Positions 2,232 to 47,850 of a stretch of 64,000 bases of DNA are shown one piece after another. Made by a program: the position numbers and the translations under genes. The DNA is from an uncultured Chloroflexia bacterium (lineage in GTDB: Bacteria > Chloroflexota > Limnocylindria > Limnocylindrales > CSP1-4): positions 223,475 to 287,474 of the forward strand of contig CAWGTR010000006.1 of the NCBI GenBank assembly GCA_963825545.1, given 5' to 3'. Below the pieces are notes generated by a model that was not told the origin of the DNA, did no database searches, and saw only the letters and a list, made by a program, of their open reading frames with translations. Numbering within the stretch: the stretch's first letter is position 1; the number at the start of each line of letters is the position of its first letter.

Positions 2232-2233
2232 GG

Positions 2234-3779: not shown

Positions 3780-4136
3780 TTGACCGCCATCTGGTACGTC
3801 GTCGGGTTCGCCTTCGCCGGCGTCTCGTTCGTCCTGCTGACGATCGGCGCGGCCTGGCTGATCTCGCATCGGAACCGCGGGGACGAGCACAAGGGCCTCC
3901 CCTACGAGTCGGGGATCGACACCTTCGGCGACACCCACGGGCGGTTCGGGCTGTCGTTCTACATCTACGCCTTGCTGTTCGTGGCGTTCGACATCGAGGT
4001 GGTCTTCATCTACCTCTGGGCGATCGTCTTCCGGGATCTCCTCATCGGCGGCTTCGTGAGCATGCTCGTGTTCGTGGCGGTCCTGCTGCTCGGGCTGGCC
4101 TACGCCTGGCGGAAGGGCGTCCTCACGTGGCGCTGA
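3780..4136 (+). CDS. nuoA: NADH-quinone oxidoreductase subunit A
   Basis: Three TM segments plus YESGI...FDIEVVFIYLWA motifs. TTG 3780 is preceded by GAGG. The longer ORF-track start at 3687 adds a non-conserved leader. Confidence 0.85.
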   Translation: MTAIWYVVGFAFAGVSFVLLTIGAAWLISHRNRGDEHKGLPYESGIDTFGDTHGRFGLSFYIYALLFVAFDIEVVFIYLWAIVFRDLLIGGFVSMLVFVAVLLLGLAYAWRKGVLTWR

Positions 4137-4858
4137 AGGGCAACCCCCCGGCGGCGGACCTTCCCGCGCCGGCAGCGCCCGACGCAGCGACGAACGCGGT
4201 CGTGGTCGCCGGCGGGCGCGACCTGATCGTGCCGATCGTGGTCCCGAACACGCTCTGGGAATCGCCCACCACGGCGGCGTACGGCGGCCAGCCCGTCGGC
4301 GACACCCACCTGCGCGAGTTCGGGGCGACCGAGCTGGGGCGCCACGACGACGCCCGCTGGGGCGCCCTCGAGGTGATCCCGACGAAGGCGGACATCGTCC
4401 TCGACCTGATCCGGGCCAACAGCCTCTGGCCGCTGCTGTCGGGGCTGGCCTGCTGCGCGATCGAGATGATGTCGGCGGCGACCTCGAAGAACGACATGGA
4501 CCGCTGGGGCATGTTCCCGTTCCGGGCCAGCCCGCGCCAGGCCGACGTGCTGATCGTCGCCGGCACGCTGACGACGAAGATGGCCGGTCCGCTCATCCGC
4601 CTGTGGGAGCAGATGCCCGAGCCGAAGTGGTGTGTCGCGATGGGCGACTGCACCTGCTCGGGCGGCCGCTACAAGCGCAGCTACTCGACGATCCAGGGGA
4701 TCGACCGGGTCCTCCCGGTCGACGTCTACGTGCCCGGCTGCCCGCCCCGCCCGGAAGGGCTGATCTACGGGATGATGCGGCTCCAGCAGCTCGTCCTGGA
4801 GCGGCGCGGCCACTGGCCGGAGCGAGCGATCGGCCCGACGGTCCCGGACGGGGTCTGA
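4127..4858 (+). CDS. nuoB: NADH-quinone oxidoreductase subunit B (N2 cluster subunit) with an N-terminal extension
   Basis: SLWPLLSGLACCAIEMM, ASPRQADVLIVAGT, GDCTCSGG and VPGCPPRPE. GTG 4127 overlaps the nuoA stop. The start is uncertain because several in-frame GTGs lie downstream. Confidence 0.85.
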   Translation: MALKGNPPAADLPAPAAPDAATNAVVVAGGRDLIVPIVVPNTLWESPTTAAYGGQPVGDTHLREFGATELGRHDDARWGALEVIPTKADIVLDLIRANSLWPLLSGLACCAIEMMSAATSKNDMDRWGMFPFRASPRQADVLIVAGTLTTKMAGPLIRLWEQMPEPKWCVAMGDCTCSGGRYKRSYSTIQGIDRVLPVDVYVPGCPPRPEGLIYGMMRLQQLVLERRGHWPERAIGPTVPDGV

Positions 4859-4863
4859 GCGCG

Positions 4864-5416
4864 ATGGATCGAGCCCTCAAGCGCCGCCTCGAGGCCCGCT
4901 TCGGAGAGCGGCTGCTCGGACCCGTCCGGCAGCGCCACGACGAGACCGAGATCCGGGTCGCGCCGGGCGACCTGCCCGAGGTGATGCGCGCCCTCCACGA
5001 CGAGCCCGACCTGCGCTTCGAGTCGCTGATGGACCTGTGCGGCGTCGACACCGGGACCGCGATGCAGACGGTCTACCACCTGTGGAGCGCGCACCACCTC
5101 GGACTGGCTCCGGGTGATCGCCGACGGCCTGTCCCGCGACGAGCCTCGGGTCCCGTCGGTCACCTTCCTGTGGAAGGGCGCCGAGTGGCAGGAGCGCGAG
5201 GCGTACGACATGTTCGGGATCGCGTTCGAGGGGAACCGCGACCTGCGCCGGATCTATATGCCGCCGGACTACACGAGCTTCCCGCTGCGCAAGGACTTCT
5301 ACCTGCCCGATGACGCCGCCCGCTCGCCCGGCGGCGGTGTCCGCCAGATGGAGCAGACCCACGCCCCGACGAACGCCACGGCCGAGGCGGCCGTGCGCCG
5401 CGCCAAGGTGAGCTGA
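4864..5416 (+). CDS. nuoC: NADH-quinone oxidoreductase subunit C, interrupted by a +1 frame change near 5095
   Basis: The N-terminal part ([21 protein letters not shown]...[10 protein letters not shown]) is in the frame of ATG 4864. The conserved C-terminal part ([66 protein letters not shown]) is in the next frame, ending at 5416. Confidence 0.8.
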
Positions 5417-5426
5417 GGTCGATCGG

Positions 5427-6644
5427 ATGACCGTCGTTCGCCATCCGTCCGCCGACGACCCGCGGGTCATGCTCGACGAGGAGGTCGGGGTCTTCGAGCC
5501 CGTCCCGCCGTATCCCCCGCGGACCGAGCGTGAGGCCGAGTTCTACTCGCTCGGCGCGGGCGAGATGTTCATCAACATGGGGCCCCAGCACCCATCGACC
5601 CACGGCGTCCTGCGGGTCGTCCTCAAGATCGAGGGCGAGCGGGTCGTGGACCTCGACCCGGTCCTCGGCTACCTCCACCGCGGGGTCGAGAAGCTGTGCG
5701 AGAACGCCGACTACCACCACACGATCGCCTACACCGACCCGCTCGAGTACGTCAGCGCGCTGTTCAACGAATGGGCGCCGGTGATGGCCTTCGAGAAGCT
5801 GCTCGACGTCGAGGTGCCCCGCCGGGCCGAATACATCCGGGTCCTGTCCGGGGAGCTCAACCGGGTCGCCAGCCACGCCCTGTTCATGGGCTGGATGGCG
5901 CTCGACCTGGGCGGCCTCACCCCGATCCTGTGGAGCTTCATCGAGCGCGACGACATCGTCGACATGCTCGCCTCGCTGACCGGCCAGCGGATGCTCTTCA
6001 ACTACTTCCGGATCGGCGGCGTCAACGGCGACCTGAACCACGAGTTCATGAGCCGGCTCGGGACGTGGATGAGCAAGGCGACCGAGCAGATCGAGGCGAA
6101 CATCACGCTGCTCAACGAGAACGAGATCTTCGTCCGGCGGATGCGCGGCCTGGGAATCCTCGACCGTGAGACGGCCTTCCGGATGTGCATGACCGGCCCG
6201 AACATCCGCGCCTCGGGCGTGCCGCTCGACATGCGCCGCTCGCACCCGTACAGCGTTTACCCGGAGCTCGAGTTCGACATCCCGACCCGCCAGGAGGGCG
6301 ACTGCCTGGCGCGCTACCTCCTCCGCCTCGAGGAGATCAAGCAGAGCCTCCGGATCATCGACCAGTGCCTGAACCAGATGCCCGACGGGCCGATCATGGC
6401 CAAGCTGCCGCGGCTCATGCGACCCCGACCCGGGCGGGCCTACGCGGCCGTCGAGGGTCCGCGCGGCCAGTACGCGACCTATGCGATCAGTGACGGGACG
6501 GACCAGCCGTACCGGATGCGGATCCACGACCCGAGCTTCGTCCACCTCCAGGCCGTCGGGCTGCTGACGCCCGGCAACCTGATCGCCGACACGATGGCGA
6601 TCATGGCCTCGCTCGATCCGATCATGGGCGGCGTCGACAAGTAG
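5427..6644 (+). CDS. nuoD: NADH-quinone oxidoreductase subunit D
   Basis: NMGPQHPSTHGVLR, LGYLHRGVEKL and the C-terminal SLDPIMGGVDK. 405 aa. Confidence 0.95.
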   Translation: MTVVRHPSADDPRVMLDEEVGVFEPVPPYPPRTEREAEFYSLGAGEMFINMGPQHPSTHGVLRVVLKIEGERVVDLDPVLGYLHRGVEKLCENADYHHTIAYTDPLEYVSALFNEWAPVMAFEKLLDVEVPRRAEYIRVLSGELNRVASHALFMGWMALDLGGLTPILWSFIERDDIVDMLASLTGQRMLFNYFRIGGVNGDLNHEFMSRLGTWMSKATEQIEANITLLNENEIFVRRMRGLGILDRETAFRMCMTGPNIRASGVPLDMRRSHPYSVYPELEFDIPTRQEGDCLARYLLRLEEIKQSLRIIDQCLNQMPDGPIMAKLPRLMRPRPGRAYAAVEGPRGQYATYAISDGTDQPYRMRIHDPSFVHLQAVGLLTPGNLIADTMAIMASLDPIMGGVDK

Positions 6645-7991
6645 ATGACGATGCTCAGCCGCTCGTTCGGCCGCCTGACCCTGCCGGGCAAGATCATCTT
6701 CACGGTCGTCCCCCTCGTCCTCATCGTCGGCGGGGTGGCCACGGCGGCCGCGATCATCGCCGCGCCGCTCGTCATCGACTTCGTCGGGGCGAACCTGCCG
6801 CTCTTCCGGTTCGTGCTGGCGGCGACGGTCGTGCTGCTGATGACCGTCCCGACGGCGTTCCTGATCATCTACATGGAGATGAAGGTCATCGCCCTGATGA
6901 ACCTTCGCTACGGGCCGGACCGGGTGGGCCCGTTCGGCTCGCTCCTGTCGGTCGTGCACGGGCTCAAGGTCCTGATGAAGGAGGACTTCACCCCGACCGG
7001 TGCCGACTCGGTGGTCTTCACCTGGGCGCCGGTGGTCGTCTACATGGCCAGCGTGATGACCCTGCTGGTGCTGCCGTTCGCCCCGGGCCTGTTCGGGCAG
7101 GACCTCAACATCGGGCTGCTGTACTTCTTCGCGATGGGCGGGCTGGGCGTCGTCGGGCTGCTCATGGCCGGCTGGTCGAGCTTCAACAAGTACTCGCTGC
7201 TCGGCGGGCTGCGCTCGGCGGCGCAGGTCGTCAGCTACGAGATTCCGCTGACCCTGTCGGTCGTCGGGATCATCCTCCTTGCCGGGACCCTGAGCCTCAA
7301 CAAGATCACGCTCGACCAGTCCGGCAGCCTGTTCGACTGGTTCGTGTTCAAGCAGCCGCTGGCGTTCCTCATCTTCTTCATCGCCGCTACGGCCGAGGCC
7401 AACCGGACGCCGTTCGACCTGACCGAGGCCGACTCGGAGATCGTGGCCGGGTTCGCCACCGAGTACTCGGGGATGCGCTTCGGGTTCTTCTTCTTCGCCG
7501 AGTACGTGAACGTGTTCATCATCTCGGGGCTCACCGTCGCGCTCTTCTTCGGCGGCTGGAACGCCCCGTTCGACTGGCCCTGGCCGATCACGCCGCACCC
7601 GGATCCGGGCGGCATGGGGGTCGGCCTGCTCGTCGCCATCGGGCTCGTGCCGCCGATCCTGATCCTCGTCCTCGGGCTGCCGTTCTATCTCGTCAACAGC
7701 CGGACGAAGCTGTGGCAGGCCCTGGTGATCGGGTTCGTCCTGTTCAACGTCCTCGCGGTCGCCGCGCTCATCGGGCTTGCCTTCCTCAGCTTCGACTGGG
7801 TCGTCGGCCTGTTCTGGTTCCTGATGAAGACGTACGCCTTCGTGTTCATGTTCGTCTGGATGCGCGGCACGCTGCCGCGGGTCCGGATCGACCAGCTCAT
7901 GGGCTTCGCCTGGAAGTGGCTGCTGCCCGCCTCGCTGCTCAACCTGTTCGTGACCGCCCTGGCGATCGTGCTCGTCGAGGGCGTTCGATGA
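6645..7991 (+). CDS. nuoH: NADH-quinone oxidoreductase subunit H, enlarged (448 aa; extra N-terminal and internal TM segments)
   Basis: EMKVIALMNLRYGPDRVGPFG, AAQVVSYEIPL, AEANRTPFDLTEADSEIVAGFATEYSG and RGTLPRVRIDQLM. Confidence 0.9.
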   Translation: MTMLSRSFGRLTLPGKIIFTVVPLVLIVGGVATAAAIIAAPLVIDFVGANLPLFRFVLAATVVLLMTVPTAFLIIYMEMKVIALMNLRYGPDRVGPFGSLLSVVHGLKVLMKEDFTPTGADSVVFTWAPVVVYMASVMTLLVLPFAPGLFGQDLNIGLLYFFAMGGLGVVGLLMAGWSSFNKYSLLGGLRSAAQVVSYEIPLTLSVVGIILLAGTLSLNKITLDQSGSLFDWFVFKQPLAFLIFFIAATAEANRTPFDLTEADSEIVAGFATEYSGMRFGFFFFAEYVNVFIISGLTVALFFGGWNAPFDWPWPITPHPDPGGMGVGLLVAIGLVPPILILVLGLPFYLVNSRTKLWQALVIGFVLFNVLAVAALIGLAFLSFDWVVGLFWFLMKTYAFVFMFVWMRGTLPRVRIDQLMGFAWKWLLPASLLNLFVTALAIVLVEGVR

Positions 7992-8001
7992 GCGCCGGGC
8001 G

Positions 8002-8664
8002 ATGACGTTCGTCCCGGGCCTTGGCCTCGTCAAGGGGATGGCGCTGACCCTGCGCCGCTTCTTCGAGCCGAAGGTGACGAACCTGTACCCGGAGGTCCCC
8101 GCCCAGATCCCGCCCAAGTTCCGCGGCCGGCTGCAGCTCCTGTACGACGAGTGGGGCACGCTCAAGTGCGAGACCTGCTTCCAGTGCGCCCAGGCCTGCC
8201 CGATCGAGTGCATCGACATGGGCGGTACCGACACCAAGGGCCGTTACGCCGTCCACTGGGGGGCGCCCGAGACGTACGGCGAACGGCGCGAGGAGTCGGC
8301 CCTCCGGCGGTCGGGCCGGACCGTGCCCGACCCCGCTTACGAGCACTTCCACGGGATCGATCTGGCGGCCGTGGATGCCGTTCTCGACGAGGTCGACCAC
8401 GATCCGCGCGAGATGCTCCGGATCCTGGCCGCGATCCAGGACGCGTACGGCTACGTACCCGTGGCCGCGCTCAAGCGGGTCAGCGAGGCGACCGGCGCGT
8501 GGTACGCGATGCTGTATGGCACGGCGACCTACTACGACCACCTCGCGGTCGGGGCACGGGAGACGGCGCCGAGCGCCGACGACGCCTACGTCGGAGCGCT
8601 CGAGGGGGCCCTCCACGGTGGCATCGACGACGGGGCGGCGAGCCGGGACGCGGGCGCCCGATGA
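8002..8664 (+). CDS. nuoI: NuoI-like ferredoxin half fused to a NuoE N-terminal helical domain (I::E' chimera)
   Basis: The N-terminal half carries NLYPEVPAQIPPKFRGR and one CETCFQCAQACP motif, as in NuoI. The C-terminal half carries MLRILAAIQDAYGYVPVAALKRVSEATGAWYAMLYGTATYYDHL, as in the NuoE four-helix domain. I see only 5 Cys in total, no second CxxCxxCxxxCP, and no thioredoxin-like 2Fe-2S part. Confidence 0.75.
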   Translation: MTFVPGLGLVKGMALTLRRFFEPKVTNLYPEVPAQIPPKFRGRLQLLYDEWGTLKCETCFQCAQACPIECIDMGGTDTKGRYAVHWGAPETYGERREESALRRSGRTVPDPAYEHFHGIDLAAVDAVLDEVDHDPREMLRILAAIQDAYGYVPVAALKRVSEATGAWYAMLYGTATYYDHLAVGARETAPSADDAYVGALEGALHGGIDDGAASRDAGAR

Positions 8665-10004
8665 CCGGCCTCCTGAAGACTCCGACCGGCTGGCCGAAGG
8701 TCCTCATCGAGTCGCCCCAGGCCGTCGACCCGACCGACCTCGATCGAGCCGTCCGCGATGGCGCCTTCGAGGCGCTCCGGACCGCGGTCCGGGCGATGAC
8801 CCCGAGCCAGGTCATCGGGGCGGTGGTCGGCTCCGGCCTGCGCGGTCGCGGCGGCAGCGGCTTCCCGACCGGGGCGAAGTGGCGGGTCGCGGCGAGCGCC
8901 CCCGGACCCACCCGCTACGTCGTCGCCAACGGCTACGGCGCCGACCCGGCGGTCCAGACCGACCGGACGCTCATGGAGCTGGCCCCGTATGCCGTGGTCG
9001 AGGGGGTCGCCCTGGCGGCCTATGCGATCGGGGCCGGCGAGGCGATCATTGCCGTCCGGGCCGATGCCGCCGAGGCGATCCGCCGGCTTGACGCGGCGAT
9101 CGGCGCCGCCGAGGAGGCCGGCTTCGCGGGGCCCGACGTCCTGGAGTCCGGCTGGGACCTGTCGATCCAGGTCCGCCCCGTCCAGGGTGCCTACATGCTC
9201 GGCGAGGAGACCGTCCTGCTCAAGGCGCTCGAGGGCAAGCGGGGCCAGCCCGAGCAGCGGCCGCCGCACCCGGCGGAGCGCGGGCTGTTCGGCCGCCCGA
9301 CGGTCGTCGACAACGTCCAGACCCTGGCGAGCGTGCCCTGGATCGTCCGCAACGGACCCGAGGCATACGCCGCGATCGGCTCGACGGCGAGCCCAGGGAC
9401 GATCCTCGTCCAGCTCCGCGCGCCGGCCGGCGGTGGGATCGCCGAGGTGCCGCTCGGGACCCCGCTCCGGGAGCTCATCGCGCTCGCCGGCCCGCGGGCC
9501 GGCCGATCGGACGGCGGCCGGCCGGTCAAGGCGGTCCTCGTCGGCGGACCCGCGGGTGGGTTCCTGCCGGCGGACCTGCTCGACACGCCGTTCGACTTCG
9601 AGTCGCTCCGCGACGTCGGGGCGCACGTCGGATCCGGCTCCATCGTCGTCGCCGACGACCGGGCCTGCGTCGTCGACCTGGCCCGGCTGCTCAGCCGCTT
9701 CTGCGCCGATCAGGCCTGTGGCAAGTCGATCCCCTGCCGGATCGGCACCCGTCGCCTGTCCGAGATCGCCGACCGGATCGCGGTCGGCACGCCGCGCCCG
9801 ACCGATGCCGGGCTGGCCGCCGACCTGGCCGCCGACATCCAGGGTTCCGGCCTGTGCGACCACGAGCGGCTGGCGACGCTGCCGATGACCAGCGCGATGC
9901 GATACTTCCGTGCCGAGCTCGACGACCATCTCCTCCGCAGCACCTGCCCCGCCGGCGTCTGCCACCCGATCAAGGTGGCCGTCGGGGCCGACCGAGGCGC
10001 TTGA
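8661..10004 (+). CDS. nuoF: divergent NuoF-like flavoprotein subunit (F')
   Basis: GLRGRGGSGFPTGAKW and GAYMLGEETVLLKALEG are present. ATG 8661 overlaps the upstream stop (ATGA). The dinucleotide-site segment reads ANGYGADPA rather than CNADE-type, and the N3 region reads FCADQACGKSIPC...GLC. Confidence 0.8.
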   Translation: MTGLLKTPTGWPKVLIESPQAVDPTDLDRAVRDGAFEALRTAVRAMTPSQVIGAVVGSGLRGRGGSGFPTGAKWRVAASAPGPTRYVVANGYGADPAVQTDRTLMELAPYAVVEGVALAAYAIGAGEAIIAVRADAAEAIRRLDAAIGAAEEAGFAGPDVLESGWDLSIQVRPVQGAYMLGEETVLLKALEGKRGQPEQRPPHPAERGLFGRPTVVDNVQTLASVPWIVRNGPEAYAAIGSTASPGTILVQLRAPAGGGIAEVPLGTPLRELIALAGPRAGRSDGGRPVKAVLVGGPAGGFLPADLLDTPFDFESLRDVGAHVGSGSIVVADDRACVVDLARLLSRFCADQACGKSIPCRIGTRRLSEIADRIAVGTPRPTDAGLAADLAADIQGSGLCDHERLATLPMTSAMRYFRAELDDHLLRSTCPAGVCHPIKVAVGADRGA

Positions 10005-12640
10005 TGACCGACCTGATCGTCCGACCCGAAGGCGCCCCGCCCGCCGAGCCGGGCGTCGCCGAGACCCTCGCGGAGCGACTGCTCGACGTGTCGGCGCCGC
10101 AGCGCCCGATGAGCGCCCCGGTGATCCGGATCGAGGTCGACGGGCGGGTCGTCGAGGGTCGCGACGGCCAGACGATCCTCGAGGTCTGCCGCGACAACGG
10201 GATCGAGGTCCCGACGCTGTGCTACGAGCCGAAGCTGCCCGGCTTCGGCGCCTGCCGGATGTGCGTCGTCGAGGTCGAGGGCGAAGAGCACCCGCCGATC
10301 AGCTGCTCGCGCGCGGCAGAGGCCGGCATGAAGGTCCAGACCCAGACCGACGAGGTGCGCCGCCTGCGGGCCACGAACCTCGAGCTGATCTTCAGCGACC
10401 ACAACGCCTACTGCCTGCCGCCCTGCCAGAACAAGTGCCCGAGCCACATCGACATTCCCGGCTTCCTCAAGCAGAACGCCGAGGGCGAGTGGCGCGAGTC
10501 GACCCGGATCTTCAAGCGGACGATCCCCTTCCCGAGCGTGCTCGGACGGGTCTGCCCGGCGCCGTGCGAGGAGCACTGCCGGCGCGACGAGGTCGATGAG
10601 GCGATCGCCATCCGTGACAGCCACCGCTACGCCGGGGACCAGGTCATCAAGGCGATGCTCGACGACGGGATCGACCCGCCGCTGCCATTCGAGCCCCAGC
10701 CGAAGACGGGTCGCCGGGCGGCCGTCATCGGGTCCGGCCCGGCCGGGATGAGCGCCGCCTACTACCTCCTCCTGGCCGGTCACGACGTGACCGTCTTCGA
10801 GCGCGACCCGGCGCCCGGCGGGATGCTCCGCTACGGGATCCCGCAGTACCGGCTCCCGAAGATCGAGGTCCTCGAGGCGGAGTACGAGTCGGTCAGCCGG
10901 CTGGGCGGGAAGATCGTATGCAACCAGGCCCTCGGGCGCGACTTCACCCTCGACGACCTCCAGGGCCAGGGCTACGACGCCGTCCTGGTGGCGATCGGCT
11001 GCTACGACACGAACAAGCTGGGCATCCCGAACGAGGACGCCGACGGCGTCATCGACGGCCTCGAATACCTCCAGACGGCCACCCTCGGCCTGCCCTACCC
11101 CGGGCACCGCGGGAAGCGCGTCGTCGTGATCGGCGGGGGGTTCACCTCGATGGACTGCTCGCGGACGTCGATCCGCCAGGGTGCCGCCGAGGTGACCCTC
11201 GTCTATCGCCGGGACATGAAGGACATGCCCGCCTCGAACGAGGTCCACGAGGCGATCGAGGAAGGCGTCCAGGCGATCTTCCAGGCCGCCCCGACGCGGG
11301 TCATCGTCGACGAGAAGACCGGCCGGGTGAGCGGCGTCGAGTTCATCCGCAACAAGCTCGGCGAGCCCGACGCGTCGGGCCGGCGGCGGCCCGAGCCGTC
11401 GCCCGGCACGGAGTTCACAATCGATTGCGACCGGGTCCTCCTGGCGATCGGCCAGGGCCCCGACCTGACCTGGATCGGGCCGGGCTCGGAGGGTCCCGAG
11501 GCGACGAAGCAGCGCCGGCTGAAGGCCGACCCGGTGACGTTCGAGACCGGACGGCCCGGCGTGTTCGGGACCGGCGACGTGCGGGTCGGCGCGGCCACCG
11601 TCGTCCAGGCGATCGCCGAGGGCCGCCGGGCGTCGTACGCCGCGGACGCCTACCTGCGTGGGATGGACCTCGGGACGATCCGGGCCCGCCAGACGCTCGC
11701 CGAGCCGCAGCCCGAGTTCCTGTCGATCGTGCCATTTACGAGCGAGGTCAAGGAACCCCGCTACCGGCTCAAGGCGATGGACGCCGAGGTCCGCAACAAG
11801 AGCTACCTCGAGTACGAGATCCCGTACACCCCCGCGGAGGCGGTCGCGGAGTCGACCCGCTGCCTGCAGTGCACCTGCGAGGCGATTGGGTTCTGCGACC
11901 TGCGCCGGCTCGGAATCGAGTACGGGACGACACTGCGCACGCTCGAGCCGCAGTTCCACCAGGGCGCGGGCTACCGGAGCGTCACCGAGAACCGCTTCAC
12001 CGGGATCAACCACGACTACGTGCGCGACGACAGCCACGCCTTCATCCTCCGCGAGCCGTCGCGCTGCATCGACTGCGGCCGCTGCGCCCAGGTCTGCTCC
12101 GAGGTCGTCGGGGCCGCCTGCTACGACTTCATGCGGATCGGCTTCGACACGCTCGTGACGACCCCGCTCGACATGAGCCTCAACGACACCCCGTGCGTGT
12201 CCTGTGGGCGCTGCGCCGAGACCTGCCCGACCGGGGCGCTGATGCCGAAGCCACGGGTGCTCGAGAAGTACGAGGTCGACGAGAGCCGCTGCATCCTGTG
12301 CGGGATCTGCGTCGATGCCTGTCCGTACGACGCCCTCCGCGACGGCGCCGACTTCGAGCTCAGCCACGTCGATCGCTCCGAGCCGATGGTCGACCTGATC
12401 GCCCTGGCGGCCATCGACCGGGAGACGGAGGCGACCTACATCCGCCGCGAGCGCGACTGGGTCGCCCGCGCCACCGCCGCCGGGCGTCCACCGGATCCGT
12501 CGCGCCTCCTGCCGGTCCTGCCGCCATCCGTCACCGGGGGCGGGGCGGGCCTGGCCGCCGCGCGCCACGGAGAGCGAACGGGCGGCAACGGCGCCTCCGG
12601 CAACGGCGCGGCCGGCGCCGGCCACGCCCATCACGAGTAG
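10004..12640 (+). CDS. NuoG-type Fe-S protein with an inserted GltD-like FAD/NAD(P)H oxidoreductase module and no molybdopterin-like domain (G'::GltD)
   Basis: Domain order: a 2Fe-2S motif (CYEPKLPGFGACRMCVVEVEG...ISC); GltD-type Fe-S sites (YCLPPCQNKCPSHIDIPGFLK, GRVCPAPCEEHC); GxGxxG sites (AVIGSGPAGMSAAYYL, VVVIGGGFTSMD); then CIDCGRCAQVC, CVSCGRCAETCPTGAL and CILCGICVDACPYDAL. The start overlaps the nuoF' stop (TGATG). Confidence 0.8.
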   Translation: MTDLIVRPEGAPPAEPGVAETLAERLLDVSAPQRPMSAPVIRIEVDGRVVEGRDGQTILEVCRDNGIEVPTLCYEPKLPGFGACRMCVVEVEGEEHPPISCSRAAEAGMKVQTQTDEVRRLRATNLELIFSDHNAYCLPPCQNKCPSHIDIPGFLKQNAEGEWRESTRIFKRTIPFPSVLGRVCPAPCEEHCRRDEVDEAIAIRDSHRYAGDQVIKAMLDDGIDPPLPFEPQPKTGRRAAVIGSGPAGMSAAYYLLLAGHDVTVFERDPAPGGMLRYGIPQYRLPKIEVLEAEYESVSRLGGKIVCNQALGRDFTLDDLQGQGYDAVLVAIGCYDTNKLGIPNEDADGVIDGLEYLQTATLGLPYPGHRGKRVVVIGGGFTSMDCSRTSIRQGAAEVTLVYRRDMKDMPASNEVHEAIEEGVQAIFQAAPTRVIVDEKTGRVSGVEFIRNKLGEPDASGRRRPEPSPGTEFTIDCDRVLLAIGQGPDLTWIGPGSEGPEATKQRRLKADPVTFETGRPGVFGTGDVRVGAATVVQAIAEGRRASYAADAYLRGMDLGTIRARQTLAEPQPEFLSIVPFTSEVKEPRYRLKAMDAEVRNKSYLEYEIPYTPAEAVAESTRCLQCTCEAIGFCDLRRLGIEYGTTLRTLEPQFHQGAGYRSVTENRFTGINHDYVRDDSHAFILREPSRCIDCGRCAQVCSEVVGAACYDFMRIGFDTLVTTPLDMSLNDTPCVSCGRCAETCPTGALMPKPRVLEKYEVDESRCILCGICVDACPYDALRDGADFELSHVDRSEPMVDLIALAAIDRETEATYIRRERDWVARATAAGRPPDPSRLLPVLPPSVTGGGAGLAAARHGERTGGNGASGNGAAGAGHAHHE

Positions 12641-12652
12641 GGAGGAGCGCGG

Positions 12653-13204
12653 GTGCCGATCCCGGACACGATCCCGGTCATCGGGGCGACTTGGAACGAC
12701 GCCCTGTTCGTGATCTTCGCCGGGATCCTCCTCGGATCCGGGCTGCTCGTCGTCACCCTCCGCGACATCATCCGCTGCGGGCTGGCGATGATCGTCTGCT
12801 TCGGCGCCCTGGCCGGCATCTACGTCATCCTCGGCGCACCGCTCATCGCCGGGGCCCAGGTGCTCGTCTACATCGGCGCGATCAGCGTGCTCATCCTGTT
12901 CGCCATCATGCTCACCCAGACGAAGGCCGCCCCGGCCCGCCTCGTGTTCCAGACCCAGGCGGTCCCGGCGGCGATCGCCGCGCTCGTCCTGGCAGTGATC
13001 CTCGCGCTCGTGGTCGTGTCGACGGACTGGGGTGCCGCGGCGGCGGTCGCGCGGACGGCGACGGACGACATGGCCCGCCTCCTGTTCCACGACTATGTCC
13101 TGCCGTTCGAGGTCGTGAGCGTCCTGCTCCTCGCGGCGGTCGTCGGCGGGGTCTACCTTGCCAAGCGCGAGGTCGACGCGACCGAGGAGCGCGGCCCGCG
13201 ATGA
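12653..13204 (+). CDS. nuoJ: NADH-quinone oxidoreductase subunit J
   Basis: GTG follows GGAGGAG. TM-rich, with AGAQVLVYIGAISVLILFAIML and a C-terminal GGVYLAKRE. Confidence 0.9.
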   Translation: MPIPDTIPVIGATWNDALFVIFAGILLGSGLLVVTLRDIIRCGLAMIVCFGALAGIYVILGAPLIAGAQVLVYIGAISVLILFAIMLTQTKAAPARLVFQTQAVPAAIAALVLAVILALVVVSTDWGAAAAVARTATDDMARLLFHDYVLPFEVVSVLLLAAVVGGVYLAKREVDATEERGPR

Positions 13205-13512
13205 CGAACTCCCTCGATGCCTACCTGATCCTGTCCGGCCTGCTGTTCTGCCTCGGGACCTTCGGCTTCCTTGCCCGCCGCAACGCGATCAGCATGCTCA
13301 TGTCGATCGAGCTGATGCTCAACGCCGTCAACCTCTCGATCGTCGCCTTCGGGGCGTTCGTGCCCAAGCTCCAGGGCCAGGGCTCGATCATCGCCCTGGT
13401 GGTGATGGCCGTGGCGGCGGGTGAGGCGACGGTCGGGCTGGCCATCGTCATGGCGATCTTCCGCAACCGGCGGACGCCGCTCGTCGACGAGTACGACTCG
13501 ATGCGGCAGTAA
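13201..13512 (+). CDS. nuoK: NADH-quinone oxidoreductase subunit K
   Basis: ATGA overlap with nuoJ. LMSIELMLNAVNLSIVAF...AAGEATVGLAIVMAIFRNRRT. Confidence 0.95.
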   Translation: MTNSLDAYLILSGLLFCLGTFGFLARRNAISMLMSIELMLNAVNLSIVAFGAFVPKLQGQGSIIALVVMAVAAGEATVGLAIVMAIFRNRRTPLVDEYDSMRQ

Positions 13513-13516
13513 GCCG

Positions 13517-15487
13517 ATGCCGTACGACGCGCTGATCGTCGCCATCCCGGCGCTGCCGATCGCCGGCTTCGCCTTCACCGCCCTGTTCGGCCGGCGCATC
13601 CAGGCGCGGCTCGGCCGGAACGCGGCCAGCGCCGTCCCGCTCGCCGTGGTGATCCTGAGCTGGCTGGCGGCGATGATCGTCGTGGTCCCCGCGCTCGGGC
13701 ATGCCGAGCCATTCGGCGAGCGCGGTCTCGACTTCACGCTGTACACCTGGATCCCGGCCGGGAACTTCGTCGTCGACGTCGGGTTCCACGTCGACGCCCT
13801 GACGGCCTGCCTCCTGATCGTGGTGACGACGATCGGGATGCTCGTCCACGTCTACTCGGTCGGGTACATGGCCCACGACCCCGGGACGTGGCGGTTCTTC
13901 GCCTACCTCAACCTGTTCATGTTCTCGATGCTGCTGCTCGTGCTGGCCGACAGCTTCCTCGTGATCTTCGTGGCCTGGGAGCTGGTCGGGCTGTCGAGCT
14001 ACCTGCTGATCGGGTTCTGGTACCGCAAGCCGACCGCGGCGCTCGCCGCGAAGAAGGCGTTCATCGTCAACCGTGTCGGGGACGTCGGCTTCGCGCTCGG
14101 GATCATGCTCATCTTCGTGAGCCTCGGGACGCTCAACGTCCAGGCGGTGCTCGGGTCGATCGGGACGCTCGACCAGTTCACGATCGTGGCCATCGCGCTG
14201 CTCGTGTTCTGTGGCGCAGTCGGCAAGAGCGCCCAGTTCCCGCTCCACGTCTGGCTGCCCGACGCGATGGAGGGCCCGACCCCCGTCTCGGCGCTGATCC
14301 ATGCCGCGACGATGGTCAACGCCGGGGTCTACCTGATCGCGCGGGTCAACCCGATCTTCGGCCACGCCCAGGGCGCGATGGTCGTGGTGGCGGCGATCGG
14401 GATCTTCACCGCGCTGCTCGCCGCGTCGATCGCGTTCACCCAGACCGACATCAAGCGCGTCCTCGCCTACTCGACGTTGTCCCAGCTCGGCTACATGTTC
14501 GCCGCGCTCGGCGTCGGCGCCTGGATCGGCGCCATCTTCCACCTCATGGCCCACGGTTTCTTCAAGGGCCTCCTGTTCCTCGATTCGGGGTCGGTGATCC
14601 ACGCCGTCCACGAGGAGCAGGACATGCGCCGGATGGGCGGGCTGTGGCGCAAGATCCCGATCACGTACTGGACGATGCTCATCGGCGCGCTGGCGATCTC
14701 GGGGATCCCGCCGCTGGCCGGCTTCTTCAGCAAGGACGAGATCCTCGGCGAGGCGTTCAAGAACGGCTTCCTCGTCGTCTGGGCGATCGGCTTCGCGGTC
14801 GCCGGGATGACCGCCTTCTACATGTTCCGGCTGATGGGGATGACCTTCTGGGGCCCGAGCCACGTCGACCCGAAGGTGGAGCCCACGATCCATGAGTCGC
14901 CCCGCTCGATGACCGTGCCGCTCATCCTGCTGGCGATCGCGTCGATCTTCCTCGGGCTCGTGATCGGCGTGCCGCTCGGTGCCGGCCTGATCAACACCTG
15001 GCTCGAGCCGGTGTTCGCCGAGACGATCGCGCTGACTGGCGGCGAGGCGGCTCCGTTCGGCCCGCTTGACGTAGCCCTGATCCTGGCCAGCGTGTCGATC
15101 GCGACGATCGGGATCATCGTCGCCTGGCGCTTCTTCGGGGTCGAGCTCGGCGCCCTCCGCCGCGCTCCGCGGCCGAAGGAGGTCACGGCGATCGCCACGG
15201 CCAGCCCCCTGACCCGGTTCCTCTACCGCGCTTCGCTCAACAAGTGGTGGTTCGACGACCTCAACGACCTGTTGTTCATCCGGATCGGCGGGCGGATCGC
15301 GGCCGCGGCCTGGTGGTTCGACCGGACGATCATCGACGGCACGGTCAACGAGATCGGCACAATCGCTGTCGGCGTCGGCCGGGAGCTGCGCCGGGTCCAG
15401 ACCGGTCGGGTCCAGAACTACGCCCTCGGGATCGCCATCGGGCTGATCGTGATGGCCGGCTCGTACCTCGTGATCGTGGGGCGCTGA
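13517..15487 (+). CDS. nuoL: NADH-quinone oxidoreductase subunit L
   Basis: WELVGLSSYLLIGFW, KSAQFPLHVWLPDAMEGPTPVSALIHAATMV and YSTLSQLGYMF. 656 aa. Confidence 0.95.
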   Translation: MPYDALIVAIPALPIAGFAFTALFGRRIQARLGRNAASAVPLAVVILSWLAAMIVVVPALGHAEPFGERGLDFTLYTWIPAGNFVVDVGFHVDALTACLLIVVTTIGMLVHVYSVGYMAHDPGTWRFFAYLNLFMFSMLLLVLADSFLVIFVAWELVGLSSYLLIGFWYRKPTAALAAKKAFIVNRVGDVGFALGIMLIFVSLGTLNVQAVLGSIGTLDQFTIVAIALLVFCGAVGKSAQFPLHVWLPDAMEGPTPVSALIHAATMVNAGVYLIARVNPIFGHAQGAMVVVAAIGIFTALLAASIAFTQTDIKRVLAYSTLSQLGYMFAALGVGAWIGAIFHLMAHGFFKGLLFLDSGSVIHAVHEEQDMRRMGGLWRKIPITYWTMLIGALAISGIPPLAGFFSKDEILGEAFKNGFLVVWAIGFAVAGMTAFYMFRLMGMTFWGPSHVDPKVEPTIHESPRSMTVPLILLAIASIFLGLVIGVPLGAGLINTWLEPVFAETIALTGGEAAPFGPLDVALILASVSIATIGIIVAWRFFGVELGALRRAPRPKEVTAIATASPLTRFLYRASLNKWWFDDLNDLLFIRIGGRIAAAAWWFDRTIIDGTVNEIGTIAVGVGRELRRVQTGRVQNYALGIAIGLIVMAGSYLVIVGR

Positions 15488-15491
15488 GCCG

Positions 15492-17039
15492 ATGGGCGAC
15501 CTGACCATCCCGCTGCTCAGCGCGATCACCTTCACGCCGCTCGTCGGGGCGCTGGTCATCGCGGTCGTCCCGCGCACCGCCGAACGGGCGATCCGCTGGA
15601 TCGCGCTGGCGACGTCGCTGATCGCGTTCGGGCTGTCGCTCGTGCTGCTGGCGGCGTTCGACCCGCTCAAGCCGGGCTTCTCGTTCGTCGAGCAGGTGGA
15701 CTGGATCCCCGTCTTCGGGATCCAGTACAAGGTCGGGGTCGACGGCCTGTCGGCCGTGCTCGTGGTGCTCACGACGACGCTGTCGTGGATCAGCATCCTC
15801 GCCTCGTTCGGGCCGATCCACGAGCGGATCAAGGAGTACATGATCTCGTTCCTGATCCTCGAGGTCGGCCTGATCGGCGTGTTCGTGGCGCTCGACCTGT
15901 TCCTGTTCTACGTGTTCTGGGAGGTCGTCCTCGTCCCGATGTACCTGATCATCGGGATCTGGGGCGGCTCAAACCGGGTGTACGCGACGATCAAGTTCGT
16001 GCTGTACACGCTCGTCGGGTCGCTGCTGATGCTGGTCGCGATCCTGGCCACGGCCTTCACCTACCAGTCGGCGACCGGCAGCTGGGACCACGCCTTCGAC
16101 TTCGAGTACCTGCGCAGCTTCGCCGCGACAGTCGGGTTCGCGAATGGGCTCCAGGTGTTCGCGTTCCTGGCCTTCTTCCTCGCCTTCGCGATCAAGGTCC
16201 CCATGTTCCCGTTCCACACCTGGCTGCCGGATGCCCACGTCGAGGCCCCGACGGCCGGGTCGGTGATCCTCGCGGCGATCATGCTCAAGCTCGGCGCCTA
16301 CGGGTTCATCCGCTTCGCGGTGCCGCTGTTCCCCGATGCGGCCCACACGTTCGCGGTACCGATCATCGTGCTCAGCCTCATCGCGATCATCTATGGCGCG
16401 GTCGTCGCCCTCGTCCAGCCCGACCTCAAGAAGCTCATCGCCTACTCGTCGGTCAGCCACATGGGCTTCGTGACCCTCGGGATCTTCGTGTTCCAGCAGC
16501 AGGGCCTGCAGGGGGCGATCCTGCAGATGGTCAACCACGGGCTGATCACCGGGGCCCTGTTCCTCCTGGTCGGGGTGATCTACGAGCGGACCCACGACCG
16601 GACGATCGCCAGGATGGGCGGGCTGTCGGGCCGAACTCCGGTGTACGCCGCCGCATTCGGCTTCTTTGTCTTCGCCAGCGCCGGGCTGCCCGGGCTGTCC
16701 GGGTTCGTCGGCGAGTTCCTGGTGCTGGTCGGGACCTTCGCGGCCAGCCCGTACGCCGCGGCCATCGCCACGTTCTGCATGATCCTGGCGGCCGGCTACC
16801 TGCTCTGGATGTTCCAGCGCGTCTTCACGGGCGAGCTGTCCGACTTCCTGGCCGGCCTCGGCCAGCACCTGACCGACATCCGTCCGATCGAGATCGCGAC
16901 GCTCGCCCCGCTCGGGGCGATGATCGTCGTGTTCGGGCTCTTCCCCGGCCTCCTCCTGACGATCATCCAGGGCACCGTGGCGACCTTCACCGCGAGCGTC
17001 GGCGCCCACGACGTCGCCGTCCACCTGATGGTCCGGTAG
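15492..17039 (+). CDS. nuoM: NADH-quinone oxidoreductase subunit M
   Basis: FYVFWEVVLVPMYLIIGIWGG, FPFHTWLPDAHVEAPTAGSVILA and YSSVSHMGFV. Confidence 0.95.
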   Translation: MGDLTIPLLSAITFTPLVGALVIAVVPRTAERAIRWIALATSLIAFGLSLVLLAAFDPLKPGFSFVEQVDWIPVFGIQYKVGVDGLSAVLVVLTTTLSWISILASFGPIHERIKEYMISFLILEVGLIGVFVALDLFLFYVFWEVVLVPMYLIIGIWGGSNRVYATIKFVLYTLVGSLLMLVAILATAFTYQSATGSWDHAFDFEYLRSFAATVGFANGLQVFAFLAFFLAFAIKVPMFPFHTWLPDAHVEAPTAGSVILAAIMLKLGAYGFIRFAVPLFPDAAHTFAVPIIVLSLIAIIYGAVVALVQPDLKKLIAYSSVSHMGFVTLGIFVFQQQGLQGAILQMVNHGLITGALFLLVGVIYERTHDRTIARMGGLSGRTPVYAAAFGFFVFASAGLPGLSGFVGEFLVLVGTFAASPYAAAIATFCMILAAGYLLWMFQRVFTGELSDFLAGLGQHLTDIRPIEIATLAPLGAMIVVFGLFPGLLLTIIQGTVATFTASVGAHDVAVHLMVR

Positions 17040-17046
17040 GCGGGCG

Positions 17047-18519
17047 ATGAGCTCGCAGGAACTCCTCACGATCGCCCCGCTCGTGACGGCCATCCTGGTA
17101 GCCGCGGCGGTCATCGTCGTCGACCTCGTACGGCCCGGCGCGCGCACCGAGCCACTCGTCGTCGCGCTGGTCGGGCTGGCGATCGTCGCCGCGGTCACGG
17201 TCGTGTCCGGGGCGAACCCGGGCGACGCCTTCGGCGGCGCCTACCGGGTGGACGCGCTGACGACGCTGCTCGACCTGCTGTTCGTCGCGATCATCGCCTT
17301 CACGCTGCTCTTCGCGCCCGACTACCTGGCGGCCCGGAACCTGCCGCTGGCCGAGTTCGCGGCCGTGCTCGTGTTCGCGATGACCGGGGCGATGCTCATC
17401 TCCGCGTCGATGGACCTGCTCGTGCTCTTCCTCGGGCTCGAGTTGATGGTCCTGCCAGGCTACCTGCTGGCCGGGTTCGCCAAGCGCGACTCGCTGTCGA
17501 CGGAAGGCGCGATCAAGTACTTCCTCCTCGGCTCGTTCAGCTCGGCGATCTTCCTGTTCGGGCTGTCGTTCGTCTGGGGCCTCACCGGGTCGACCCGGAT
17601 CGCCGCGGTCGCGTCGAGCCTCGGCGCGGTGGTCGCGGGCACCGCGCCGCTGTCCCCGGGGCTGGCAATGGGGCTCGCGTTCCTGACGACCGGCGTGGCG
17701 TTCAAGATCGCCGCGGTGCCGTTCCACTACTGGACGCCGGACGCCTACCAGGGCTCGCCCACGCCGGTCACCGGCTACCTGTCGGTCGGCCCCAAGATCG
17801 GCGCCTTCGCGCTGATCCTGCGCCTGTTCGTGGGCGCCCTCGGTCCGCTCCACGCCGACTGGCTGGTGGTGATCGTGATCCTGTCGACGATCACGATGAC
17901 GCTCGGCAACTTCGTGGCCATCACCCAGGACAACGTCAAGCGGATGCTCGCCTACTCGTCGATCGCGCACACGGGCTACATGCTCGTCGGGCTGGCCGCC
18001 TGGGCGAGCCCGAACTCGCGCATCGAGGGCATCGAGGGCCTGCTCTTCTACGCGGTCGCCTACAGCTTCATGAACCTCGGCGCGTTCGCCGTCGTGGCCG
18101 CGCTCCAGCGCCGGCGCGGGGTCACCAGCAGCATCGACACGTTCGCCGGCCTCGGCGCCCGCGAGCCCGCGCTGGCGATCCTGATGACCCTGTTCCTGCT
18201 GTCCCTGACCGGGATCCCGCCGACGGCCGGCTTCTTCGCCAAGGCGTTTGTGATCCTGGCCGGCGTCGAAGCCGGTGGGGCGGCGGCCGTGCTGGCGGTC
18301 ATCGCAGTGCTCAACGCCGCGGTCGCCGCGTTCTACTACCTGCGCGTCGTCGTCTACATGTTCATGCGCGACGCCAAGGGCGAGCCGGTGCCCCTCGAGA
18401 AGAGCGGCATCCTGCGGGTGGGCCTCGCCGGCACGGCGTTCCTGACGATCGTCCTCGGGCTGTTCCCCGGAGCGCTCGTCCAGGTCGTCGAGAACGCCGC
18501 GCGCGCCCTCGTCTCCTAG
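17047..18519 (+). CDS. nuoN: NADH-quinone oxidoreductase subunit N
   Basis: LGLELMVLPGYLLAGF, VPFHYWTPDAYQGSPTPVTGYLS and AYSSIAHTGYML. Confidence 0.95.
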   Translation: MSSQELLTIAPLVTAILVAAAVIVVDLVRPGARTEPLVVALVGLAIVAAVTVVSGANPGDAFGGAYRVDALTTLLDLLFVAIIAFTLLFAPDYLAARNLPLAEFAAVLVFAMTGAMLISASMDLLVLFLGLELMVLPGYLLAGFAKRDSLSTEGAIKYFLLGSFSSAIFLFGLSFVWGLTGSTRIAAVASSLGAVVAGTAPLSPGLAMGLAFLTTGVAFKIAAVPFHYWTPDAYQGSPTPVTGYLSVGPKIGAFALILRLFVGALGPLHADWLVVIVILSTITMTLGNFVAITQDNVKRMLAYSSIAHTGYMLVGLAAWASPNSRIEGIEGLLFYAVAYSFMNLGAFAVVAALQRRRGVTSSIDTFAGLGAREPALAILMTLFLLSLTGIPPTAGFFAKAFVILAGVEAGGAAAVLAVIAVLNAAVAAFYYLRVVVYMFMRDAKGEPVPLEKSGILRVGLAGTAFLTIVLGLFPGALVQVVENAARALVS

Positions 18520-23366: not shown

Positions 23367-23421
23367 CGGCCGAGTGTAGCCGGGCGACCCCGAAGCACCG
23401 TCCGCGGGGCGCCGGCGATGG

Positions 23422-23450
23422 TTGACACACGCGGTTCCCGGTCGTAGCAT
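23422..23450 (+). promoter_or_regulatory. sigma-70-like promoter: TTGACA, 17 nt spacer, TAGCAT
   Basis: TTGACA at 23422-23427 and TAGCAT at 23445-23450 with an exact 17-nt spacer, in the MFS/arsR divergent gap. Confidence 0.6.
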
Positions 23451-23478
23451 CAACAGCGATTTATATAAATCCGTGTTG
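23451..23478. promoter_or_regulatory. AT-rich inverted repeat, candidate ArsR-type operator
   Basis: CAACAgcGATTTATATAAATCcgTGTTG. The core GATTTATATAAATC (23458-23471) is a perfect 14-bp palindrome and the outer CAACA/TGTTG arms also pair. It sits just downstream of the -10 and spans the likely arsR start. Confidence 0.6.
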
Positions 23479-47448: not shown

Positions 47449-47820
47449 CGATCGGGTCTGACCTGTTGGCTGTCGGGGTGGCGATGGGTAATGGTCGGCC
47501 AGGGGCGCGGGCTCGGGGGAACCGTGGCGTGGGCTCGTTCGGCGCGCTCTGCAGGCCGGCGGCGGTCCGCTCCAGGGGCTCCTCGGAGGGTCTTCCAGAG
47601 GCTGCCACCGACCTTCCCGGCGCCGGGGGCCCGCGAAGGATAGCACCGGCCGGAGGAGGCTCGCAAGGCGTTCCGGCGCGATTCGCCAGATACTCCCCAG
47701 GGGTATCCGTGCGTGGCCGCCCCGACGGCCCCGACGGGTCCGACCGGGGTCGCCTCGCCGGTCGACGCCAGTCTCGCCGAAACGCGGCACGCAGGCCGGC
47801 GCCGGCGCATCCGACCTCGT

Positions 47821-47850
47821 TTGACACCCCCTTCGCGACCGCCCCATAAT
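47821..47850 (+). promoter_or_regulatory. sigma-70-like promoter upstream of rpmH: TTGACA, 18 nt spacer, CATAAT
   Basis: TTGACA at 47821-47826 and CATAAT at 47845-47850. Confidence 0.55.

Follow-up and report, generated by a model that had tools for sequence, protein, structure and literature searches.

A 64,000-nucleotide stretch of DNA from an uncultured Chloroflexia bacterium (GenBank assembly GCA_963825545.1, contig CAWGTR010000006.1, positions 223,475-287,474 of the forward strand; hereafter, the window) carries a complex I (nuo) operon in which genes related to the NfnABC/StnABC enzymes stand in place of nuoE, nuoF, and nuoG, and in which NuoI is divided between two proteins. The source belongs to the GTDB lineage Chloroflexota; Limnocylindria; Limnocylindrales; CSP1-4, and the G+C content of the window is about 71%. 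The operon probably encodes a proton-pumping NAD(P)H:quinone oxidoreductase in which NADPH would enter at a GltD-type flavin adenine dinucleotide (FAD) site, with an input module derived from NfnABC/StnABC, of the Bfu family, and not from NuoEFG. The architecture of the operon, the homologies of its proteins, the conservation of their cluster ligands, and the coupling of the genes can all be read in this DNA and its relatives.

The operon consists of 13 close-packed genes on the + strand (3780-18519) in the order A-B-C-D-H-[I::E′]-F′-[G′::GltD]-J-K-L-M-N. A preliminary description of this DNA had given the same order, and it is correct. A scan of relatives that used one genome per species gave at least 552 stretches encoding relatives, 80 loci were kept, and in 80 of these 80 Chloroflexota (Limnocylindria) loci the order is identical. 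Conservation is counted here over 81 sequences of G′, 76 of F′, 75 of the I::E′ protein (IE), and 65 of NuoB. Ten of the 13 genes are named by Pfam and NCBIfam, namely nuoA, B, C, D, H, J, K, L, M, and N. All seven complex I membrane subunits (A, H, J, K, L, M, and N) are matched by Pfam, and the quinone module is present as NuoB, NuoC, and NuoD, with NuoC complete after the removal of one inserted base (see below). NuoB, NuoD, and NuoH each exceed a curated NCBIfam cutoff, and the remaining canonical subunits match their Pfam families. The ligands of cluster N2 in NuoB are C109/C110/C175/C205, which are kept in 63-65 of the 65 sequences.

The three unusual genes sit between nuoH and nuoJ: IE (8002-8664, 220 amino acids (aa)), F′ (8661-10004, 447 aa), and G′ (10004-12640, 878 aa). 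Where one gene ends and the next begins, stop and start codon overlap, reading ATGA between IE and F′ and TGATG between F′ and G′. All three proteins score under the curated NCBIfam cutoffs for NuoI, NuoE, NuoF, and NuoG, and no second copy of nuoE, nuoF, nuoG, or nuoI was found within the 64-kb window.

The first half of NuoI is at the N-terminus of IE (residues 1-84; 8002-8253), which contains a single CxxCxxCxxxCP motif (C56/59/62/66). Residues 9-81 align to the first half of solved NuoI chains (E=1e-11 for the N-half alone; for instance, to residues 23-86 of 7awt_I), and the four cysteines are kept in 74 of 75 relatives and in the homologous Thermoleophilia locus L081. The second half is found at the C-terminus of G′ (residues ~751-800; 12254-12403), starting about 10 residues past the last Cys-Pro of the G′ ferredoxin domain (688-741). 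It carries the motif C763-x2-C766-x2-C769-x3-C773-P followed by FELS, and, together with its flanks, it aligns to the second half of solved NuoI/TYKY chains (residues ~93-152). In TIGR01971, the NuoI model, IE covers positions 1-65 and G′ positions 71-116 (E=1e-15) of 121. Each piece is far under the NuoI cutoffs (for example, 56.6 versus 212 bits), and together they cover the whole model. When rejoined in silico (IE 1-84 plus G′ 753-815), they give one ungapped alignment to residues 23-129 of E. coli NuoI (E=1.2e-23) and also align to residues 23-143 of plant TYKY. All eight NuoI cysteines are present and invariant across relatives, with the two motifs divided over IE and G′ instead of lying on a single polypeptide.

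Judged by these alignments, NuoI has been divided in two and not cut short. Each cluster of a 2x[4Fe-4S] ferredoxin fold is bound by three cysteines of one motif together with a fourth that the other motif provides. The fold needs the cysteines of both motifs, and neither NuoI half could therefore bind a cluster by itself. Most simply, the two halves would assemble into an ordinary N6a/N6b domain. In the preliminary description, NuoI had been considered a one-cluster protein and the Fe-S (iron-sulfur) wire a shortened one. As the C-terminal part of G′ supplies the second motif (C763/766/769/773), which makes the case one of splitting and not of truncation, neither idea is supported; NuoI is complete when joined, and G′ has more Fe-S motifs than NuoG.

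From its N- to its C-terminus, G′ comprises a 2Fe-2S domain (residues 40-115), a GltD-type module (137-540), a C-x2-C-x-C-x5-C motif (620-631), a two-cluster ferredoxin domain (688-741), and the CxxCxxCxxxCP motif of the NuoI half (763-774). The 2Fe-2S domain is N1b-like (C73/84/87/101; 10121-10348; PF13510, E=2.7e-20). The GltD/NfnL-type module (10412-11626; Fer4_20 and Pyr_redox_2, matched as PF14691 and PF07992) has cluster motifs at C137/141/145 and C184/188/192, an FAD site that reads GSGPAG, and a second Rossmann fold that reads GGGFTSMD ... VYRRDMKDMPA. In the Fe-S relay that follows (11861-12229; PF22117 and Fer4 matches), C620-x2-C623-x-C625-x5-C631 is joined to the ferredoxin cysteines C688/691/694/698 and C731/734/737/741; the same motifs are found in NfnA/StnC. 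Together, the motifs proper to G′ would account for about six clusters. A molybdopterin-like domain is lacking, and the gene ends at 12640 after a variable Gly/Ala-rich tail. The loss of this domain and the gain of a GltD-type module had been noticed in the preliminary description; nevertheless, the module is inserted after the N-terminal 2Fe-2S domain and is not an appendage.

These features place G′ nearer to NfnA and StnC than to NuoG. In effect, it reaches only 96 bits against the NuoG model, whose cutoff is 470, and solved NuoG chains match it at the 2Fe-2S domain only (~1e-20). Its closest matches in the PDB are NfnA of Caldicellulosiruptor saccharolyticus (9bov_A, E=5.4e-165, 39% identity over residues 40-795), NfnA of Thermococcus sibiricus (9n5u_A, E=3.7e-144), and StnC of Sporomusa ovata (8oh5_C, E=2e-143). 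An AlphaFold2 (AF2) model of G′, made from a 63-sequence alignment, is confident at residues ~40-560 only, and in its GltD region the predicted local distance difference test score (pLDDT) is mostly 80-95; a Foldseek search with this model returned 9bov_A, 9n5u_A, and 8oh5_C as the top three and similarity to NfnA/StnC/NfnL/GltD. The series that marks the A subunit of Nfn-Bfu/Stn enzymes, which is a GltD domain after the 2Fe-2S domain and then NuoG/HydA-type clusters, is thus found in G′ by full-length alignments. The VYRRDMKDMPA stretch, an NADPH-type motif, aligns with that of the NADPH-oxidising NfnA, and the second Rossmann motif and the YRR stretch are near-invariant among relatives. In public databases, G′ is labelled 'FAD-dependent oxidoreductase' or 'formate dehydrogenase major subunit'.

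The other two proteins are reduced forms of their Nfn/Stn counterparts. F′ is a NuoF/BfuB-like core with a flavin mononucleotide (FMN)-binding domain (PF01512) and an N3 domain (PF10589), and it lacks the N-terminal 2Fe-2S and the C-terminal 2x[4Fe-4S] domains. It scores 345 bits against the NuoF equivalog models and does not reach their cutoff of 559. Its PDB matches are NfnB (9bov_B, E=6.7e-112, and 9n5u_B), StnB, and HydB, in a range from 1e-112 to 1e-93, compared with 5e-80 for canonical NuoF. The divergent nucleotide site and the CxxS-type N3 motif that had been pointed out earlier can both be read in F′. The flavin-site motif is NGYGADP, as opposed to N(A/G)DEGDPG in relatives (a change from D-E to Y-G), and the N3 motif is C-G-K-S-I-P-C in place of the usual C-G-K-C-x-x-C. 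The second N3 ligand, at the position of Cys356, is Thr in 53 and Ser in 23 of the 76 F′ sequences. C348 was considered as a substitute ligand and rejected, as it occurs in no more than 68 of the 76 sequences and so offers no general solution. The GLRGRGG(A/S)GF loop, GEET, NGYGADP, and the three N3 cysteines are invariant, and all 76 sequences retain F′ at its full 447 aa. F′ thus seems to be still under selection, but with a remodelled site. Near its C-terminus, CPAGVCH (residues 429-435; 9945-9962) forms a C-P-A-x-x-C-H motif that is present in 60 of 76 relatives and aligns with the 'CPAKQC' stretch of NfnB (9bov_B residues ~518-525). The B subunits of Stn and Hyd have a Zn-stabilised linker between the core and a C-terminal ferredoxin domain; F′ has lost this domain, and CPAGVCH may be a remnant of the linker.

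E′ (IE residues ~121-182; 8362-8547) is only the N-terminal helical domain of NuoE/BfuC (PF01257 positions 2-58 of 145). The 2Fe-2S domain is absent, and IE contains no conserved cysteines other than those of the NuoI half. The best PDB match of E′ is NfnC (9bov_C, E=4.5e-8), and it is closest to NfnC and StnA. That E is reduced to its helical domain and fused to NuoI, and that the rebuilt input module has two flavin and two dinucleotide sites, had been proposed before; the former agrees with the extent of the PF01257 match and the lack of 2Fe-2S cysteines, and the latter with the domain calls and the matches of F′. The canonical N-module includes a NuoE with N1a, a NuoF with a four-Cys N3, and a NuoG with a molybdopterin-like domain, and none of these is found in E′, F′, and G′.

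Close relatives of G′ (82-98% identity) are encoded in very many Chloroflexota metagenome-assembled genomes (MAGs) labelled Candidatus Limnocylindria or Limnocylindrales, and none of the Fe-S cysteines of G′ varies in the 81 sequences. Within the operon, conservation is highest in the G′ Fe-S relay with the NuoI C-half, with a mean identity to the window of 92.5%, followed by the G′ 2Fe-2S domain (88%), the GltD module (87%), NuoD (84%), the NuoI N-half (82%), F′ (68%), and the E′ helical domain (67%). It follows that selection is strongest between GltD and NuoI and that it is weakest for the FMN side. Because the gene order is the same in all of the Limnocylindria loci and also in four Thermoleophilia loci, this complex I variant is real and conserved, not a chance pattern.

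The Thermoleophilia loci came from a scan of other lineages, which covered the 150 best representatives at the 50% identity clustering level. Among those 150, the NuoI C-half is found in G′-type proteins only in a Limnocylindria fragment and in a Thermoleophilia (Actinomycetota) cluster. The latter, made up of MAGs, comprises at least 120 clusters that are 60-88% identical to each other. L081, L083, L084, and L085 have the same operon with the same split point in NuoI. In these loci, the NuoI N-half is joined in one protein to an entire E/BfuC subunit that has its 2Fe-2S cysteines. F is a BfuB of 630-642 aa; it has a 2Fe-2S domain at its N-terminus and a 2x[4Fe-4S] domain at its C-terminus, and its flavin motif, CNGDEGDPGAF, and its N3, with four cysteines, are of the canonical kind. 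The BfuBC core is thus complete in these four loci, in contrast to the window, where F′ has PF01512 and PF10589 only and E′ is clusterless. All subunits are 33-49% identical between Limnocylindria and Thermoleophilia, so the whole operon appears to be of common ancestry in the two lineages. The most fitting interpretation of the form in the window is that it arose by reduction from a complex I with a full Nfn-Bfu module. Several further matches of ~810-850 aa in the scan are GltD-containing formate dehydrogenase (Fdh)-like proteins that all end at the same 'HCARL' point; we take them to be truncated at an unread selenocysteine codon. The surroundings of the Thermoleophilia operon are unlike those in Limnocylindria, with an opposite-strand tatC upstream in L081, L083, and L085 (tatA is called in L081 and L083) and a gene for a YmdB-like metallophosphoesterase downstream in L082-L085.

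How such a complex would assemble, which donor it would use, and how it would pump protons can be proposed from its sequences. The three-gene Nfn/Stn-type module is spliced into nuoI. The E-like helical domain grips the F subunit in known enzymes, and that of E′ would hold F′ here. The two NuoI halves would rebuild the two-cluster NuoI (N6a/N6b) and clamp the input module onto the quinone module. Such a clamp would take over the docking function that belongs, in NuoG, to the molybdopterin-like domain that is lost here. On the main path, NAD(P)H, most likely NADPH, would give a hydride to the FAD of the GltD-type domain in G′. Electrons would then pass through the two GltD-domain clusters, the C620-C631 cluster, and the two-cluster ferredoxin domain to N6a/N6b, and from there through N2 in NuoB to quinone, driving the canonical A/H/J-N pump. 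A possible second path would lead from NADH to FMN in F′, N3, and the 2Fe-2S cluster of G′, joining the main path at the same junction. NADPH is considered the likely donor because of the homology of G′ and the conservation of its second Rossmann motif and YRR stretch. The midpotentials of NADPH and NADH are nearly equal, and NADPH:quinone turnover could therefore drive the same proton pump; in effect, this pump may oxidise NADPH directly.

In StnC, electrons run from FAD through the two GltD-domain clusters and a further 4Fe-4S cluster to the 2Fe-2S cluster and the flavoprotein, and a side branch (clusters C1/C2) toward an inactive Fdh-like domain is described as a non-functional remnant (PMC10482914). 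Judged by domain order, the ferredoxin domain of G′ (688-741) would be the counterpart of this side branch, which would have become the exit to the quinone module.

Several observations weigh against this reading or part of it. It is not certain that the GltD-type site is specific for NADPH, and the invariant GRGG(A/S)GF(P) loop and GEET of F′ may point to a full NADH site, in which case NADH would be the main donor instead. Structure prediction is of little help for the relay, as the pLDDT of the AF2 model is under 50 for residues 624-818 of G′, the region of the Fe-S clusters and the NuoI half, and gives no usable cluster geometry. Likewise, an AF2 model of the rejoined NuoI (IE 1-84 plus G′ 753-815, single sequence) is uninformative, with a pLDDT of 34.5. 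A separate canonical nuoI or nuoEFG may be present elsewhere in the genome, beyond the 64-kb window. Finally, nuoC (4864-5416) is broken in the window by a 1-base insertion at ~5089-5092, where it reads GCGCGCACC and relatives read GCGC-CACC; if this frameshift were real, the present copy of the operon would be non-functional. The extra base lies within a GCGCGC run and is missing from L001 (98% identical), L002, L003, and L042, which are all of the aligned relatives (4/4). A programmed frameshift was considered as well and ruled out, since nuoC is in frame in the same four. As the insertion falls in a GC dinucleotide run, it is probably, and most simply, an assembly error. The corrected protein matches positions 1-121 of the 124 of PF00329 (E=2e-38), and every other gene of the operon is intact. 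Thus, although the insertion does split nuoC into two frames, it is very improbable that the operon is decaying in this genome.

Among the readings that accept a working complex, the one that demands serious consideration, although it is rather unlikely, is a complex I fed by NADPH only, in which all electrons would enter via the GltD-type FAD and F′ and E′ would be structural relics without NADH oxidation. In effect, all of the lineage-specific changes are on the FMN side: the 2Fe-2S domain of E and the extra clusters of F are lost, all 76 sequences have either Thr or Ser at the Cys356 position of N3, and Y-G has replaced D-E in the flavin motif. F′ and E′ are also the least conserved subunits (67-68%, compared with 87-92.5% for the parts of G′). 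Nevertheless, the invariance of NGYGADP, GRGG(A/S)GF, GEET, and the three N3 cysteines argues for selection on a cofactor site, and no F′ sequence is shortened. Alternatively, the complex could serve mainly as an energy-linked bridge of nucleotide pools and not as a forward NADPH dehydrogenase, either by transferring electrons between NADH and NADP+ or by reducing NADP+ with quinol through reverse electron flow that the proton gradient would drive. The parent enzymes are reversible transhydrogenases (PMC10482914, PMC9304861), and the two nucleotide sites share one Fe-S junction. By contrast, conservation peaks from GltD to NuoI and not from one flavin to the other, the changes in N3 weaken the link from FMN to the junction, and no direction is indicated by the sequence, so that this alternative seems improbable.

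Bifurcation has also been suggested, as the preliminary description associated the two flavin and two dinucleotide sites with bifurcating or NADPH-linked enzymes. The kinship holds, given that the best solved matches are NfnABC and StnABC, but bifurcation itself is unlikely in the Limnocylindria form because the BfuBC-specific core clusters are missing from E′ and F′. In its complete version, with a one-cluster NuoI, a shortened Fe-S wire, two donors, and possibly a bifurcating module, that proposal is highly improbable. It could draw on the single cluster motif of IE when taken by itself, on the number of flavin and dinucleotide sites, and on the homology of the module to bifurcating enzymes. 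It fails to accommodate the second, invariant NuoI motif at the end of G′, the dependence of either cluster on cysteines from both motifs, the surplus of cluster motifs in G′ relative to NuoG, and the absence of the clusters that define BfuB and BfuC. Still less probable is that IE, F′, and G′ make up a soluble Nfn-like enzyme of their own, whose genes are merely located in the nuo operon. Their closest solved relatives are indeed soluble. However, IE and G′ hold the halves of an essential NuoI for which there is no other gene in the operon or the window, G′ lacks the Fdh-like domain that mediates tetramer formation in Stn, and the location of the module between nuoH and nuoJ, which is the place of nuoI, is fixed in two phyla. 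A membrane-bound NAD(P)H:quinone oxidoreductase with an Nfn/Stn-type input module thus remains the preferred reading.

The remaining genes of the operon are of canonical type. nuoA (3780-4136; PF00507, E=5.5e-32) has a likely TTG start at 3780, and the earliest possible ATG in a start-codon scan is at 3687. It is followed by nuoB (4127-4858; PF01058; NF005012, 216 bits versus a cutoff of 116), nuoC (see above), nuoD (5427-6644; PF00346; NF004739, 434 bits versus 360), and nuoH (6645-7991, 448 aa; PF00146, E=2.4e-104; NF004741, 322 bits versus 305). Downstream of the module are nuoJ (12653-13204; PF00499, E=2.1e-32), nuoK (13201-13512; PF00420, E=4.5e-25), nuoL (13517-15487; PF00361, PF00662, and PF01010), nuoM (15492-17039; PF00361, E=7.9e-82), and nuoN (17047-18519; PF00361, E=9.7e-70). 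Domain calls and alignment to L081 confirm the extensions of NuoB and NuoH that had been remarked on before. NuoB has an N-terminal extension of ~50-90 aa relative to its Thermoleophilia homologue. In a pairwise alignment to the NuoH of the same locus, NuoH has an N-terminal extension of ~46 aa and a hydrophobic insertion of ~66 aa between 'GGWNAPF' and 'LFWFLMK'; these extra segments may be additional transmembrane helices.

Directly upstream of nuoA is a PF02636 gene (Methyltransf_28, E=7.9e-47) at 2123-3451 on the + strand. Its homologues lie just upstream of nuoA in 61 of the 63 Limnocylindria loci that include nuoA, and not in L081. PF02636 is the family to which NDUFAF7/MidA belongs, an assembly factor of mitochondrial complex I that methylates the counterpart of NuoD. 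Elsewhere in the window, dnaN (44461-45579, - strand), dnaA (46087-47847, - strand), and a YidC/60KD_IMP gene (48597-49910, + strand) indicate that the chromosomal replication origin is probably near 47.9-48.6 kb, ~30 kb from the nuo operon. There are also two long open reading frames (ORFs) on the - strand. One of them (29952-35396, 1814 aa, GC3 0.95) matches only the PMT (protein-O-mannosyltransferase) family in Pfam, at residues ~1093-1549, and roughly 1000 of its N-terminal residues have no Pfam match. The other (21654-24572, 972 aa) has an MFS transporter domain at residues 416-847 only, and its N-terminal part of ~400 residues is unassigned and may be an over-extended ORF call in high-GC DNA.

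Complex I is usually seen as strictly NADH-specific and equipped with a fixed N-module. The chances seem about even that Limnocylindria and Thermoleophilia respire with an undescribed class of complex I, in which an Nfn/Stn-type module lies within NuoI and the NuoI halves tether it covalently. In Limnocylindria, it would work as an energy-conserving NADPH (perhaps also NADH):quinone oxidoreductase, and the Thermoleophilia form, with its full bifurcating core, would join NADH, NADPH, ferredoxin, and quinone in one proton pump. These are abundant uncultured lineages, and the operon is conserved in hundreds of uncultured soil and freshwater bacteria, whose respiratory chain has probably been misread in metabolic reconstructions. 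If this proposal is true, energy would be conserved straight from NADPH with no need for a transhydrogenase, and the input module of complex I would have been exchanged at least once more in evolution, here by insertion into the gene of a core subunit. The split NuoI would then be a two-cluster ferredoxin domain built from two polypeptides, and it offers a natural experiment on N-module docking. In addition, the full Bfu core of the Thermoleophilia form and the reduced one of Limnocylindria make a comparison pair for the role of the bifurcation clusters.

Full-text searches of the literature yielded no account of a split NuoI or of an Nfn-type module in a nuo operon, although one may exist in a subscription journal. 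The nearest solved systems are NfnABC/StnABC, NADPH-oxidising electron-bifurcating transhydrogenases of the Bfu family (PMC9304861, PMC10482914, PMC11829005, PMC12018979). They have the same three-subunit set, and their NfnA/StnC subunits have in common with G′ the 2Fe-2S domain, the GltD/NfnL-type FAD and NADPH module directly after it, the C-x2-C-x-C-x5-C cluster, and the two-cluster ferredoxin domain. However, they are soluble enzymes, while the genes of the window predict a module that is wired into a membrane complex. G′ has no Fdh-like domain at its C-terminus, where one half of NuoI is found; E′ is without the 2Fe-2S domain, and its protein begins with the other half; and F′ lacks the N-terminal 2Fe-2S domain and the C-terminal 2x[4Fe-4S] domain, which are needed for bifurcation and ferredoxin reduction.

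With the canonical complex I of T. thermophilus (Nqo) and E. coli (Nuo), the operon shares A, B, C, D, H, and J-N, the N2 ligands, and a NuoI content that is complete when joined. By contrast, its NuoI is in two pieces on two proteins, it has neither the N1a domain nor the C-terminal domain of NuoG, and it has an additional FAD and NAD(P)H site. Moreover, the E/F/G-like genes lie between the nuoI halves and not between nuoD and nuoH.

Other complexes have also combined the membrane and quinone modules with unusual input devices. Nuo-Bfu complexes with a 14-subunit A-N set have been predicted in Deferribacteres, Proteobacteria, Planctomycetes, and Nitrospirae (Schut et al. 2022, PMC9304861). 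They resemble the present operon in that a Bfu-type ABC input set lies in the middle of a nuo cluster, and the Thermoleophilia form, with its full BfuB and BfuC, fits this pattern. Nevertheless, a Nuo-Bfu complex has a complete nuoA-N with BfuABC for nuoEFG, while here there is no intact nuoI and the module, with its GltD domain, lies inside nuoI. In the text consulted, the description of Nuo-Bfu includes neither a GltD-type NADPH module nor a split NuoI, and it has no report from Chloroflexota or Actinomycetota; the form in the window also lacks the BfuBC core clusters. Finally, Mbx-like complexes, Fpo with FpoF, and cyanobacterial NDH-1 likewise reuse the membrane and quinone modules with other input devices. 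The Mbx-like case shares a GltD-type NAD(P)-binding protein with the operon described here: in Mbx-like operons, a GltD-related flavoprotein replaces NuoI (Degli Esposti 2015, PMC4758237). In the window, on the other hand, NuoI is kept, although split, GltD is a domain within a NuoG/HydA-like Fe-S protein, and a NuoF-like flavoprotein is retained.

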